Below are positions 1 through 10,026 of a stretch of 10,026 bases of DNA, one piece after another. The stretch lies in the IMG/VR virus record IMGVR_UViG_2706794694_000003; one strand, written 5' to 3'. The position numbers and the translations under genes were made by a program. The DNA comes from a virus (lineage: Duplodnaviria; Heunggongvirae; Uroviricota; Caudoviricetes). The notes under the pieces are model-generated. The model was not told the origin of the DNA. It saw nothing but the letters and a program-made list of their open reading frames with translations, and searched no databases. Numbering within the stretch: position 1 is the stretch's first letter; every line of letters starts with the position of its first letter.

Positions 1-54
1 GTTACGCAGAGAATCGTAACGGGATACCAGATCAAGAGCCTGTCCAATGTGCAT
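1..54 (-). CDS. insG: IS4-family transposase, N-terminal 18 codons (partial, runs off window)
   Basis: Minus-strand translation from ATG 54-52 gives MHIGQALDLVSRYDSLRN, which I recall as the start of IS4 InsG. Not in the ORF track because it is truncated by the window edge. Confidence 0.55.
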   Translation of the reverse strand, partial: MHIGQALDLVSRYDSLRN

Positions 55-138
55 AAAAAAATCCGGAAACAAGTGAGCGTTTCCGGATTCTTACACAGCC
101 ACTGGATCGGTCAACTGATCCTTAACTGATCGGCATTA
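1..138 (-). mobile_element. IS4-like insertion sequence, left end (partial; continues beyond window start)
   Basis: Read on the minus strand from 138: TAATGCCGATCAGTTAAG..., then an 84-nt leader containing a 10-bp hairpin (61-70 pairs with 79-88) followed by a T7 run, then the transposase ATG at 54-52. Identification rests on my recollection of the IS4 transposase N-terminus and terminal repeat, not on a search. Confidence 0.6.
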
Positions 139-1278
139 CACCACCGGGACGCGGATTCATATCTTCCAGGTCGCGGCAGTCATTGGAAGAGTAAATTCCC
201 CAGTTGATCCCGGTGGCGTAGGCTTCAAAACGGGACTTCATATCCCCGCGCAGTAACGCCCCGGCGTTAAATTTGGCGTAATAAACGCCCTGCTTACTTT
301 TTCGTACCAGTCCGGTGTTGATCCGCTGTTCGATGCGGGTCAGATACGGCACCAGTGAATAGTTGATAAATCCCAGCCCCAGCTCTTCGATATTGTTGAA
401 GGTGGCGCGATCGGTGTTCTGCACCATGTGCAACGGCACCCGGAACAGACGACAGATTTCTTCCAGCTGAAACTTGCGGGTTTCCAGGAACTGACTGTCC
501 TCGGCGTTCAGCGCCATCGACTTCCAGTCCAGCCCCATTTCCAGAATCATCGGGCGGTGAGCATTGCCAAGCCCCGTGTGACACTCCTCAAAATCTTTCT
601 TCAGACGCTCGTAAGCATCCGGCGTGAGCTTTTGTTCCGTACGCAACACACCGGATGTCACCGCACCATTACTAAACAACCTGGCACCGTGCTCCTCGGT
701 TGCCGCTGCCAGTGAAATGGCCTCACGCGCATACGCAATGGGATTCAGCCCGACAAGTCCATCCAGCGTCAGGGTGCGCACATGCCAGATTTCATTCTGG
801 GTCAACACATCCACGGAACCATCCGGAAACGTCACCTGATAAACCGGCTGCCACTGGCTGTTCAGCTTCGGTTCCACACAGCCCGGATCTATCGGAAGAA
901 GCTCCACCACTTCTCCCAGTGCCTTTACCTTGTAGGCGTAAAAATTCCCCCGTAGACACAGGCAGACAATAACCAGCTCCCAGAATTCCTGCGGTGTCAT
1001 GTAGCCATTAGGTTTTGCCGAAACCAACTTATGCAGTCGTTCATCCACCGCCCGTGTTTTCAGGGTACCGCTGATTTTGTAGAGACTGCAGGGCAGCATA
1101 CCAACAGACTCTGCCAGCACCCTGACGCAAGAATAGACCGCCGTCAGGCGCATGGCCCGCTGGCTACTGATCCGCTTTCCGGTATAGGTGTCGTATGACA
1201 GCCCGATAGCATCAGCAGTTCTGCTGGCGTGGTCACCGGCACATCGCTTTTTCGTTGAAATAATCCCGAAAAGAACAC
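122..1278 (-). CDS. Phage portal protein, HK97 family; probably disrupted (start unresolved, 3' end inside the IS4 terminus)
   Basis: Track ORF 122..1369 translates to a portal-like protein (AMRLTAVYSCVRVLAES motif and a long conserved body). The first 30 track codons begin at TTG, are Cys/Arg/Trp-rich and overlap the 60-aa ORF in another frame, so they are unlikely to be real. The only strong RBS (GGAGGT 1290-1285) precedes GTG 1278 in a different frame. Stop TAA 122-124 lies inside the putative IS4 terminal repeat. Confidence 0.6.
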
Positions 1279-1471: not shown

Positions 1472-3205
1472 TTAAAGCGAGCGGATCCCGTAGGACTCAA
1501 TGTGGTCAGACAGCGTGTCTTCTTTCTCGTACAGCATGGCTCTGCCAACCGCCATAATCAGCGCAACTGCACCATCGATTTTGTTTTCCGCCTGCTCTTT
1601 GACGGGTTTCACCACATCATCGTTACCCGGCATGTTTTTGCCGACCACGTTGCCGATACACCAGGTCATGATGGGATTGCCGTCATGATGAAAACGTCCC
1701 GATTCAATCGCTGCTTCCAGCTCTTTCATCGGATCGGACATATTGGTGAAGTTCTGGACGATAGTGACGGGATTCAGGTCTTCATCAGCAAGGTCATGTG
1801 ACAACCCGGTCGCCCCGAAGGGGTCGATGGGTGACTCACTGACCGGGCTGATTTTGTTCGCCGCTTTGGCCTCCTCGAGGATGTAGCGATAATCCACCTC
1901 CGCACCATCGGTAACGGTCAGAACGCCCATTTCCACCCATTTCTGAAAGCGTTCGGCTGTCCGTCGATCTTCATTTTTCTCGACGCTGTACACCGTGTCA
2001 TACGGTACCCAGAAACGCGGGGCCACACTGTAGTAATGCGTTTTACCGTCAATCTCGCGGGTATAAAGTCGCGCCATGCTGTTCATATCCAGCTTACGCG
2101 CCAGGTCAAAGGCCAGAATGCACGGCTGCCCCTCGAACTGCTCAAGGGTCAGTGATTTATCCTCGCAGCTCTGCCAGCTCACCAAGTTGAAATACGCCGA
2201 ACGCGCCGACACCCAGATATTGAGGTGTTTTGTTTTAAAGACGTTTGCCAGACGGGCGTTATTTTTCGCACGCTGCTGCTGACTTAACAAAAATTCGCGA
2301 TAAACCGACACGCCAATATTTGGATTGGCTTTTTCCAGCACCTGCGGGCCGGTCCAGTCGTCACCTTCATCAACGGTATAGATGATCCCGAACAGTTCAT
2401 CGTTAGGCACCGAGCCGTTGAGCATCTCGATGACTTCCCGCCGCTTGTCGTAGCACGGCCCCTCAATGTTGTACCCGGCGGTGGTGATGGCCCACATCAG
2501 TGGCTGACGTCGCGCCCCCATCCCGGTAAGCATTGTGGTATAAAGCGCATCGGTGGCATGCTCGTGATATTCATCAACCACGGCACAGTGGGGTGATGAA
2601 CCATCACCTGGGTTGCCGATCAGCGGTTCAAACCGCGCGCCATCCTCCGGACGGTTCATGTTTGAGGCGTTAACCTCAATCCCGAACGCTTCCGTCAGCA
2701 TGGGTGTGCGTTTACACATCAGTCGCGCCGGGCGAAAGACTTCCCACGCCTGTTTCTCTGTCGTGGCACCGGAATACACTTCCGCGCCAAACTCGTTATC
2801 ACAGGCAAAACAATACAGGGCAACACCGGCAGAGATTGCTGATTTGCCGTTCTTACGGGGGATTTCGGTGTACACCTCCCGGAAGCGGCGCAACCGGGTG
2901 CCTTTATTGACCCAGCCAAACGCACAGCAGATCACAAATAGCTGCCACGGCTCCAGCGTGATGGGCATCCGTTTGAATGCCCACTCCCCCTTGGTGTGCG
3001 GCAACAGCTGAATAAATTTCGCGGCCCGTTCAGCCAGGTCCTTGTCGAAGCGGTAACGAAACGACTTACTTTTTTCCGCCATCAGGTCATCAAGATGGCG
3101 CTGGCAGGCCTGAATCACAAACTGGCAGGCAACAATCTTTCCGCGCACGACATCCCGGGCATACTGATTTGCAGCATTTACGTTGGGGTAAGATTTCCGG
3201 CTCAT
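1472..3205 (-). CDS. Phage terminase large subunit
   Basis: 577-aa ORF with ATG start whose ATGA overlaps the stop of the upstream small-subunit gene. Walker A-like RKNGKS motif and typical ATPase/nuclease-length architecture. It follows the small subunit and precedes the portal. Confidence 0.9.
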
Positions 3206-3696
3206 GATTCGATAATTTTCAGAAACGGGTTAGTGGCTTTCTTCTGCCCCGCCAGGCCAATCAGACGCTGGCGGCTGCTGGGGTCGAGTCCGAGCATTGC
3301 CCCCGTGCTGCTCATCTCGGACTCCTGTTCTTTTTTGGCGGTCAGCTCCGGATTTTTGACCCTGCCGCCCATTGCACCGGTGATGGTGTTGCCCTGTATG
3401 GCAATATTTTTCACGGCACGTCGCCAGAACTCATAGGCCACGCACCACCGCTCAAGTACCGCCAGGTCAGTCACGCACAGCAGGCCCTGACCGCAGAGTT
3501 CTTTGGTTGTCAGTTGCCACATGATCGTGGCGAGAGGGAGATCTTCTTCAGCGAACCACTCTGGTGGCTCAACACCTTTGATGGGCGTAAAAACAGGTTC
3601 ATCTTTGTTCAGGGCTCGCTTGCCGGGGTTTCCGGCCAGCGCCTTGCGCGCCGTTGGCTTGGGGCGACGCCCGGAACGCCCCGCCGTTCCAGCCAT
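3202..3696 (-). CDS. Phage terminase small subunit (P27-like family)
   Basis: Chosen start is ATG 3696-3694 ([18 protein letters not shown]...), preceded by AGGAG at about 8 nt. The track start at 3705 is GTG and adds 3 codons. The basic N-terminus is typical of small terminase subunits. Stop overlaps the large-subunit ATG. Confidence 0.8.
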
Positions 3697-3746
3697 ATGC
3701 GGCACTCCTGGTTAAATTTCATTTTTCGCGGGTATAAAAAAACGAT

Positions 3747-3817: not shown

Positions 3818-4168
3818 TCACCGGATTCGTTCGCGCGCTGTTTTCGCTTTATGGCAGGGCCAGCACAGACTCTGCAGGTTGCTGTCTGCGTCTGTTCCGC
3901 CATGCGCTTTCGGGATGATGTGGTCGACGGTTTTCGCCTCGCTCACCACACCGACACGCAGACACAACTGACACAGACCTTTATCGCGCTTCAGAATACG
4001 GGCACGAATCACCGTCCATTTTGAGCCATAGCCACGCTGGTGGCGGCTCAGTCCGCGCTGGTGCTGCACCCAGCCTTCACCGCGATGTTTATCGCAGTAA
4101 CCCGAACTGTCTGTGGTTGTACCTGCACATCCACGCTTACGGCAGGCACGTGGGATTAGTGATGGCAT
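3818..4168 (-). CDS. HNH endonuclease (packaging-associated, HK97 gp74-like position)
   Basis: 116-aa ORF with ATG start and GAGGT RBS. Cys-rich N-terminal region, then DHIIPKAHGG and CWPCHKAK, consistent with an HNH/zinc-finger nuclease. Located immediately upstream of the terminase genes. Confidence 0.85.
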   Translation of the reverse strand: MPSLIPRACRKRGCAGTTTDSSGYCDKHRGEGWVQHQRGLSRHQRGYGSKWTVIRARILKRDKGLCQLCLRVGVVSEAKTVDHIIPKAHGGTDADSNLQSLCWPCHKAKTARERIR

Positions 4169-4210
4169 AAATACCTCATACCCTGCGAAATGTTTACCAC
4201 GATAAAAAGG

Positions 4211-4465
4211 CTACTTAATGCACTGAGTGCGGATATACTCCTGTGCCCCTTCCAGTTGCATCTGCATCGTCATCAGCCGCTCTCTGAGGGTGAAATAATC
4301 CCGTTCAGCGGTGTCTGCCAGTCGGGGGCTGGTTGCATTATCCACGCCGGAGGCGGTGGTGGCTTCACGCACTGACTGACAGACTGCTTTGATGTGCAAC
4401 CGACGACGACCAGCGGCAACATCAGCGCGCAGAGTTTCATTTTCAGCTTTCGCATCAGCTAACTC
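4211..4465 (-). CDS. Rz: Rz-like i-spanin, C-terminal part (5' end lost in the N gap)
   Basis: The frame is open from the gap edge to TAG at 4211-4213. Translation ...ENETLRADVAAGRRRLHIKAVCQSVREATTASGVDNATSPRLADTAERDYFTLRERLMTMQMQLEGAQEYIRTQCIK closely matches the lambda Rz C-terminus as I recall it. Confidence 0.8.
   Translation of the reverse strand, partial: ELADAKAENETLRADVAAGRRRLHIKAVCQSVREATTASGVDNATSPRLADTAERDYFTLRERLMTMQMQLEGAQEYIRTQCIK
4273..4455 (-). CDS. Rz1: Rz1-like o-spanin lipoprotein, embedded in Rz in another frame
   Basis: ATG at 4455; MRKLKMKLCALMLPLVVVGCTSKQ... has a signal peptide with a lipobox Cys and a proline-rich mature region. Entirely nested within the Rz reading frame, the classic Rz/Rz1 arrangement. 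Confidence 0.75.
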   Translation of the reverse strand: MRKLKMKLCALMLPLVVVGCTSKQSVSQCVKPPPPPAWIMQPAPDWQTPLNGIISPSESG

Positions 4466-4715
4466 NNNNNNNNNNNNNNNNNNNNNNNNNNNNNNNNNNN
4501 NNNNNNNNNNNNNNNNNNNNNNNNNNNNNNNNNNNNNNNNNNNNNNNNNNNNNNNNNNNNNNNNNNNNNNNNNNNNNNNNNNNNNNNNNNNNNNNNNNNN
4601 NNNNNNNNNNNNNNNNNNNNNNNNNNNNNNNNNNNNNNNNNNNNNNNNNNNNNNNNNNNNNNNNNNNNNNNNNNNNNNNNNNNNNNNNNNNNNNNNNNNN
4701 NNNNNNNNNNNNNNN
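4466..4715. other. Assembly gap (250 N)
   Basis: Uninterrupted run of N from 4466 to 4715. Confidence 0.95.
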
Positions 4716-9833: not shown

Positions 9834-9948
9834 GCAGCCACACCTCTGATACAAGAACGGTAGCTGGGCCAGTTGAACGACAACCAGTTGCGCCCCCCGT
9901 CTGTGATCCTGTCGGCAATGCGGGGGCTGATGAACGCTGGATTTGCCC

Positions 9949-10026
9949 CTATATTTCCAGACACCTGTTATCACTTAACCCATTACTGGCTTGCTGCCGT
10001 AGATATTCCCGTGGCGAGCGATAACC
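9949..10026 (-). CDS. 3' end of an upstream gene (likely replication initiator/helicase-loader class), partial
   Basis: Only one minus frame is open from the window edge to TAG at 9949-9951 (...GYRSPREYLRQQASNGLSDNRCLEI). Function is inferred from lambdoid gene order only. Confidence 0.3.
   Translation of the reverse strand, partial: GYRSPREYLRQQASNGLSDNRCLEI

Follow-up and report, generated by a model that had tools for sequence, protein, structure and literature searches.

The transposase genes of IS10 and IS50 are shielded from external promoters by a fold-back that inhibits the translation of read-through transcripts, as described in the work of Kleckner and Reznikoff. In these elements, the initiation region is buried in a helix in transcripts arriving from outside, while the element's own transcript lacks the 5' arm of that helix. 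IS4 (insG) of Escherichia coli is the type element of the IS4 family and belongs to the IS4 subgroup, for which a length of 1,400-1,650 bp was taken as the criterion (1,426 bp in IS4 itself). The ends of this subgroup carry the signature -AATR--------WTW, direct target duplications of 10-13 bp are formed, and a target preference has been reported for some of its elements (PMC2266710). In Shigella, both the IS3 and IS4 families have expanded and rearrangement rates are high (PMC8072062; PMC2266710). HK97-type portals are known from HK97 (gp3, PDB 8cez), SfIV, SfII, SfI, and phiP27. In intact relatives of the prophage studied here, a 413-aa portal overlaps the start of an HK97-family prohead protease, which is followed by the major capsid gene.

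The window, i.e., the whole stretch of 10,026 nucleotides analyzed (IMG/VR record IMGVR_UViG_2706794694_000003), holds an IS4 end and an HK97-type portal pseudogene at a locus shaped by IS-mediated prophage decay and inversion, all of which are already known kinds from IS4, HK97-type phages, and Shigella. It is highly probable that IS4 inserted into the portal gene of a prophage and that later IS-driven loss or relocation left a remnant in Shigella sonnei, bordered by an IS4 copy with a probably insulating hairpin.

The window derives from the S. sonnei chromosome. Its large-terminase protein was found as an exact sequence in nine chromosome-length contigs, including CP000038.1 (L012), which we take to be S. 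sonnei Ss046, and in one draft contig of 9,960 bp. On both sides of its N-run, the window was 100% identical to six of the nine contigs, CP000038.1 among them. In the assembly collection, the exact large terminase occurred in 4,305 blocks, mostly on contigs of 2-10 kb, as is expected since drafts break at the flanking IS copies. The run of 250 N at 4466-4715 takes the place of 418 bp in the lysis region, from the end of the lysozyme gene into the start of an Rz-like gene. All S. sonnei loci contain these bases, and the ORFs listed over the run are artefacts.

The gene set of the locus comprises helicase, RusA, Q, lysis genes, HNH, TerS, TerL, and the portal pseudogene, with IS2 and IS4 at the ends. 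Next to the portal pseudogene on the minus strand are a ymfR-like ORF of 60 aa (1278-1460), so called from the annotation of homologous prophages, and the intact genes of the large terminase (1472-3205; Pfam TerL_ATPase and TerL_nuclease) and the P27-family small terminase (3202-3705; Pfam Terminase_4). The HNH endonuclease gene (3818-4168, minus strand) lies immediately upstream of the small terminase, and both ORFs are open. The resulting order HNH - TerS - TerL - ymfR-like - portal is shared with the packaging modules of the Shigella phages SfII and SfIV, to which DNA identity was 94-95%, compared to 93% for E. coli prophages. The prophage of origin is P27/SfII/SfIV-like with an HK97-type head. 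Although the portal is dead, gene calls in the source contigs still give the terminase, Q-antiterminator, and holin/lysozyme genes at full length. On the far side, the remnant is bounded by the end of an IS2 copy (9939-10026), located upstream of a DnaB-like helicase gene. Over its first 88 nt, the IS2 nested in the IS4 of L012 matched these bases at 93% identity, and IS2-type ORFs of 121 and 301 aa (HTH_Tnp_1 and rve) were found on this side in the source loci. The integrase/immunity side of the prophage is also cut off there.

The window begins within IS4 and holds, on its minus strand, the left end of the element at 1-138 (IS4 nt 1-138 of 1,426); all 138 bases are identical to E. coli IS4, including the terminal repeat, the hairpin, and the transposase N-terminus. 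By megablast, positions 1-140 were 100% identical to IS4 copies annotated as insG or "IS4-like element IS4 family transposase" and matched in 2,591 of 5,426 complete E. coli genomes. Read on the minus strand from the ATG at 54-52 to position 1, the first 18 codons of the transposase InsG give MHIGQALDLVSRYDSLRN. An alternative TTG start at 72-70 is the choice of PGAP, so that the annotated CDS begins 18 nt further upstream in L003 and L004. The full product, of which the window holds 18 codons, is a single-ORF DDE transposase with an N-terminal IS4 domain: in the source loci L008 and L009, the portal-adjacent IS4 encodes 442 aa with PF13006 (Nterm_IS4) and PF01609 (DDE_Tnp_1). This copy measures 1,426 bp in L008 and L009 and 1,425 bp in L010, while six other contigs have the 1,426 bp with an IS2 nested in them; the element thus lies within the length range of the subgroup. 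The full copy of the source genome was 99.6% identical to a copy in E. coli.

The terminus was placed with a reference copy of 1,426 bp in yicI (L003), the ends of which are unambiguous because a perfect 12-bp target duplication stands on both sides. Laid on the window, these ends put the IS4 terminus exactly at 138. The left terminal inverted repeat, TAATGCCGATCAGTTAAG, covers the 18 bp from 121 to 138 on the minus strand and shares 16 of 18 bases with the right repeat, TAATGCCAGTCAGTTAAG. The subgroup signature was found both in positions 138-121 of the window and in the right repeat of the source loci. CA (TG on the IS strand) stands just outside the left terminus in two independent IS4 copies, at 139-140 of the window and at 1939-1940 of L003; the yicI duplication of the latter reads CAG...CTG. 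Seen at these two sites, it may reflect the target preference reported for the subgroup.

A terminator-like hairpin with a T-run occupies positions 55-88 on the minus strand, directly before the transposase ATG, and is a normal part of every IS4. Its 5' arm, ATCCGGAAAC (IS4 nt 51-60), and its 3' arm, GTTTCCGGAT (IS4 nt 69-78), form a 10-bp stem with 5 G-C pairs between 61-70 and 79-88, enclosing a loop of 8 nt (IS4 nt 61-68). Seven T, counting the last stem base, extend to IS4 nt 84, and the ATG begins at IS4 nt 85. Alone, the hairpin folds at -14.6 kcal/mol. The 99-nt IS4 leader reached z = -4.5 against shuffled sequences, with 0 of 200 shuffles folding as well. In the longer leader fold, an outer helix pairs UGUGUA (IS4 nt 42-47) with UGCACA, which overlaps the start codon, and in the minimum-energy folds the stem runs on into the T-run. 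The structure is terminator-like in the direction of the transposase only; on the other strand, the hairpin is followed by TCTTACAC. The leader hairpin was not listed by a scan for simple consensus terminators, and a search of window positions 1-400 against Rfam at E <= 1 returned no family. Literature searches on the IS4 leader, its terminator, and read-through function, as well as on the S. sonnei prophage, returned general papers only.

The same region was folded in six IS4-subgroup left ends from plasmids: an IS4-family element of K. michiganensis (L015), an E. coli variant (L016), the element of pKAZ1 (L017), an ISAeme15-family element (L018), a solo fragment (L019), and an element of C. 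freundii (L020). A hairpin with T5-T7 was found at the same place in all six, and in five of them it stands directly before the start codon. The exception, L019, is without a transposase gene: at about 250-335 of this E. coli plasmid (p203740_80), a solo IS4 left end carries the terminal repeat, the -35 element, and the hairpin, with no transposase gene behind it. The stems of L017 and L018 differ from that of IS4 by a compensatory change from A-T to C-G, and the stem of L020 is wholly unrelated in sequence. In a MAFFT alignment of all seven left ends of IS4 type (A1), the stems of the more distant relatives are out of register, so the individual folds were relied on instead of pair counts.

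A promoter-like site overlaps the hairpin at 87-114 on the minus strand. It consists of a -35-like TTGACC (114-109; IS4 nt 25-30), a spacer of 16 nt, and a TG-extended -10-like AAGAAT (92-87; IS4 nt 47-52), which overlaps the first two bases of the 5' arm. It is the sole sigma-70-like match in positions 1-1600, one match being the chance expectation. Of the -35 bases, T25, T26, G27, A28, and C30 were invariant in the seven IS4-subgroup left ends. As the -10 abuts the stem, a transcript from this putative promoter of IS4 would start inside the 5' arm, 6-8 nt further on. A leader starting at IS4 nt 58-60 was predicted to fold at only -3.3 kcal/mol, compared to -23.5 kcal/mol when the upstream arm is included.

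Conservation across these relatives suggests that the hairpin most likely insulates the transposase gene against outside transcription. Transcripts entering from outside would be blocked by intrinsic termination and by a helix that sequesters the GGA/AUG initiation region, while transcripts from the element's own promoter would have an unstructured, translatable leader. The likeness to IS10 and IS50 lies in this predicted pairing, with an own transcript that would lack the 5' arm; the difference is that the IS4 leader also looks like an intrinsic terminator, with its stem and seven T before the ATG. A further proposal is more tentative, and we hold it with somewhat less than even confidence: the IS4 leader (nt 42-92) may be a conserved RNA device of the IS4 subgroup that blocks outside transcripts, being terminator-like and burying the start codon, and from which the own transcript escapes. 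Such a device is not described for IS4 in Rfam or in the searchable literature.

Among the alternatives to the overall account, the one that survives best concerns the hairpin alone. The hairpin and T-run could be a DNA element for protein binding or transposition, such as a site of the transposase or of a host factor, or an attenuator of the element's own mRNA, rather than an insulator. Their location in the subterminal region, where transposases often bind, is in favor of this alternative, as is the own-promoter assignment, a consensus match no better than chance. It was nevertheless judged unlikely. What is conserved is the pairing, the T-run, and the position, while the stem sequence is free, as in the unrelated stem of L020 and the compensated stems of L017 and L018; this points to an RNA structure and not to a sequence-specific protein site, and the terminator-like form in the transposase direction only also speaks against this alternative. 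The insulating role assigned to the hairpin in the preliminary description has in this way gained comparative support from the relatives and is stated here as the most likely function. For the phage itself, insulation is moot at this locus, as no phage gene is located downstream any more.

Portal homology begins where IS4 ends. Similarity to intact portal genes begins at 139 in the majority of the best E. coli and phage matches and at 141 or 153 in the others (153 in phiP27). The frame of the portal body continues across the junction as GGT GGT G/TA ATG CCG ATC AGT TAA, where the slash marks the IS4 terminus. The IS thus encodes the remainder of a split codon, four complete codons, and the stop (122-124). 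The native frame ends after ...NPRPGG and is followed by V-M-P-I-S and the stop from IS4 (138-122), so that five IS-encoded residues stand in place of 33 native C-terminal residues (DVYLTPMNMTT...). The Pfam portal domain was kept whole in ORF 122-1369 (PF04860, E = 3.3e-107, profile positions 2-321 of 321) and is shared over the full profile with the portals of HK97, SfIV, SfII, SfI, and phiP27. When an intact portal homologue was compared to the HK97 portal structure (8cez_A, E = 1.2e-53), the alignment ended at about ..PGGDVAMRQA. The region alignable to the structure is retained, and the lost tail lies almost wholly beyond it. IS4 has the same orientation as the late operon of the phage.

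Several claims of the preliminary description can be compared to these results. It had taken the element for IS4 from the transposase start read from 54 on the minus strand and from a terminal repeat at 138, and both the identity and the terminus were borne out, the former by the insG copies and the latter by the reference copy in yicI. The hairpin at 61-88 with its seven T before the ATG proved real as well. A native portal C-terminus replaced by the insertion was correctly anticipated: positions 1-138 matched IS4 and portal homology did not run through the stop at 122. It was right that this stop and the last codons come from the IS, but the loss had been put too low, as 33 native residues are gone and not merely a few.

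The junction itself was found in none of the 5,426 complete E. coli genomes, and an exact-pattern scan of species-representative genomes, among which S. sonnei is apparently not represented, gave no match. Assembly error was rejected as an explanation, since the same junction recurs without change in nine independent chromosome-length contigs and five IMG/VR contigs. With its apparent restriction to one lineage, the sequence portal...GTCCCGGTGGTG/TAATGCC could be used as a marker.

Independent of the insertion, the portal gene is broken by a frameshift. The HK97-family portal pseudogene covers 122-1278 on the minus strand, and its native GTG start (1278-1276) shares bases with the stop codon of the ymfR-like ORF (TAGTG), an overlap also present in intact relatives. 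In an alignment of the portal DNA to the intact 413-aa portals L001 and L002, one G was missing and 33 C-terminal codons were lost. From the GTG, 21 codons match the intact portals, after which the missing G (CTGGC to CTGC, between 1216 and 1215) shifts the frame and leads to a premature stop at 1146-1144, 44 codons after the start. The deletion was present in 10 of 10 S. sonnei loci. It was absent from all 80 loci in which the portal 3' end is uninterrupted, 56 of which show the intact allele. There is accordingly no intact frame from the native start to a native stop, the former being followed by the deletion and the latter being replaced by IS4. The 415-codon ORF at 122-1369 is a mechanical upstream extension of the portal frame and exists only because the shifted frame stays open upstream into ymfR; it should not be called a portal protein. 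The position of the gene has changed as well. In place of the prohead protease and major capsid genes expected opposite the large terminase, IS4 and then chromosomal genes follow the portal in all source contigs. Compared to HK97-type portals, that of the window is thus frameshifted after codon 21, has its tail replaced, and is without downstream protease and capsid genes.

The 12 bp that adjoin IS4 in the window, GTCCCGGTGGTG (139-150, minus strand; portal codons ..R P G G), form the left copy of the target, and the reciprocal junction was found in a second contig. A degenerate search of IMG/VR for the IS4 right end, 0-2 nt, and TCCCGGTGGTG gave two matches, of which one was true (L022). The other, L021, was rejected as a chance match without IS4. 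In L022, the IS4 right end is followed by the same GTCCCGGTGGTG, then by ATGTCTATCTC... and by the missing parts, namely the portal 3' end, the protease, the capsid, and a siphovirus-type tail module. The uninterrupted target, CGCGTCCCGGTGGTGATGTCTATCTCACACC, was found in at least 120 viral contigs, where the 12 bp occur once. Left junction, right junction, and empty site together indicate a simple transposition with a 12-bp duplication, within the 10-13 bp of IS4. As the 12 bp are shared by the left end in the window and the right end in L022, the original insertion had the duplication expected of the subgroup, while the present arrangement does not.

The only contig with the reciprocal junction was L022, a draft sequence joined through a single N and a fold-back of the IS4 hairpin; species-representative genomes and JGI metagenomes gave no match. 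In this contig, the portal 3' end with the protease 5' end occurs twice (2400-2860 and 4190-4600; 3 differences in 386 bp), once on each side of an IS4 that is missing nt 1-60. The second portal 3' copy is uninterrupted, and the upstream portal has the same 1-bp deletion as S. sonnei. The double copy is probably an assembly join of two related prophages. In the contigs read, the exact capsid (P0121) and the exact 228-aa protease ORF (P0135) of L022 occurred only beside intact 413-aa portals and no IS4, in an exact-protein search that is blind to variant or pseudogenized copies.

On the right side, the portal-adjacent IS4 leads into the chromosome. The left flank ...GTCCCGGTGGTG next to IS4 was found in all nine chromosome-length contigs, but two right flanks occurred. 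In three contigs (L008-L010, from 14494), IS4 is intact and is followed by CAGCCCTTGAGC... and then by raiA-pheL-pheA-tyrA-aroF. In the other six (L005-L007 and L011-L013; from 15830 in L012), the right flank is GCTCATTGAGCACC..., followed by bamE-recN-nadK-grpE, and IS2 splits the element at nt 1118-1123 (about 14191-15520). The transposase of the split IS4 is shortened to about 374-380 aa, and the window fits either form of the copy. Neither right flank repeats the left one, so that no target duplication surrounds the portal-adjacent copy in any of the nine contigs, nor were the phage protease, capsid, or tail genes found after its right end. It is in this lack of a duplication, and in the interruption by IS2 in six of nine contigs, that the S. 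sonnei copy differs from E. coli IS4. On the map of E. coli K-12, one right flank is located 24 bp past bamD and the other 45 bp past bamE (2,736,907 and 2,753,991). The bamD/raiA and bamE/yfjF spacers are the two ends of a segment of 17.1 kb in K-12, hence the raiA...bamE segment stands beside the remnant in either orientation. Such an inversion polymorphism flanked by IS4 is what recombination between inverted copies of the element would be expected to produce. The insertion on the bamE side is located inside the bamE/yfjF terminator palindrome.

From these junctions, the following course is considered highly probable. IS4, a DDE-transposase IS of 1,426 bp, entered the portal 3' end of a prophage in the S. 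sonnei lineage, 33 codons before the stop, and duplicated the 12-bp target GTCCCGGTGGTG. Later recombination between IS4 copies would then have detached or removed the portal 3' end and the prohead protease, capsid, and tail genes. The IS4 right end now joins the bamD/raiA or the bamE/yfjF spacer, depending on the orientation of the 17-kb segment.

A one-step origin would also account for the missing duplication around the present copy. Here, a resident chromosomal IS4 would have attacked the portal by intramolecular transposition, with an adjacent deletion or inversion, and would never have been flanked by a duplication. IS4 copies do flank the neighboring raiA-bamE segment, and an intramolecular inversion would likewise duplicate the target at both new junctions. 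Yet the reciprocal product in L022, with its identical 12 bp, carries the signature of a simple insertion, and the two right flanks among S. sonnei strains show that homologous exchange between IS4 copies operates at this place. A one-step origin was therefore regarded as improbable, and simple insertion followed by exchange between IS4 copies remains the preferred course.

A simple IS4 insertion could also have left a prophage that is complete except for the portal C-terminus, in which case the second IS end and the duplicated target would be located immediately beyond the left edge of the window. This reading agrees with the left junction falling exactly at the IS4 terminus and with L022, which shows that such a structure once existed or exists somewhere, but is very improbable given that the right end meets raiA-pheA-tyrA-aroF or bamE-recN-nadK-grpE without a duplication in nine of nine contigs, that the portal has its independent frameshift, that IS2 cuts the replication side, and that the exact L022 capsid and protease accompany only intact portals. 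The expectation of the preliminary description that the other IS end and an 11-13 bp duplication would lie to the left of the window, together with the otherwise complete prophage that this implies, is contradicted by the nine contigs and by the same defects. Its prediction of a packaging-defective prophage is correct, the portal being cut by IS4 and frameshifted and no head genes being located downstream. Portal frameshift, truncation by IS2, and IS4 together make the locus a non-functional prophage remnant.

This region should be labeled as an IS4 end next to a portal pseudogene, on the margin of a prophage remnant, and not as a defective but complete prophage. With its bracket of IS2 and IS4, its nested IS, and its 17-kb inversion, it shares the features of cryptic-prophage decay in Shigella and shows no difference in kind; it neatly illustrates the part that IS4 and IS2 play in taking prophages apart and giving rise to inversions in S. 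sonnei. Wider interest lies only in the structurally conserved leader hairpin of the IS4 subgroup, as it bears on how the family avoids activation by outside transcription. If the leader device holds true, the translational block would be its working part in a Q-antiterminated phage late operon like the one studied here.
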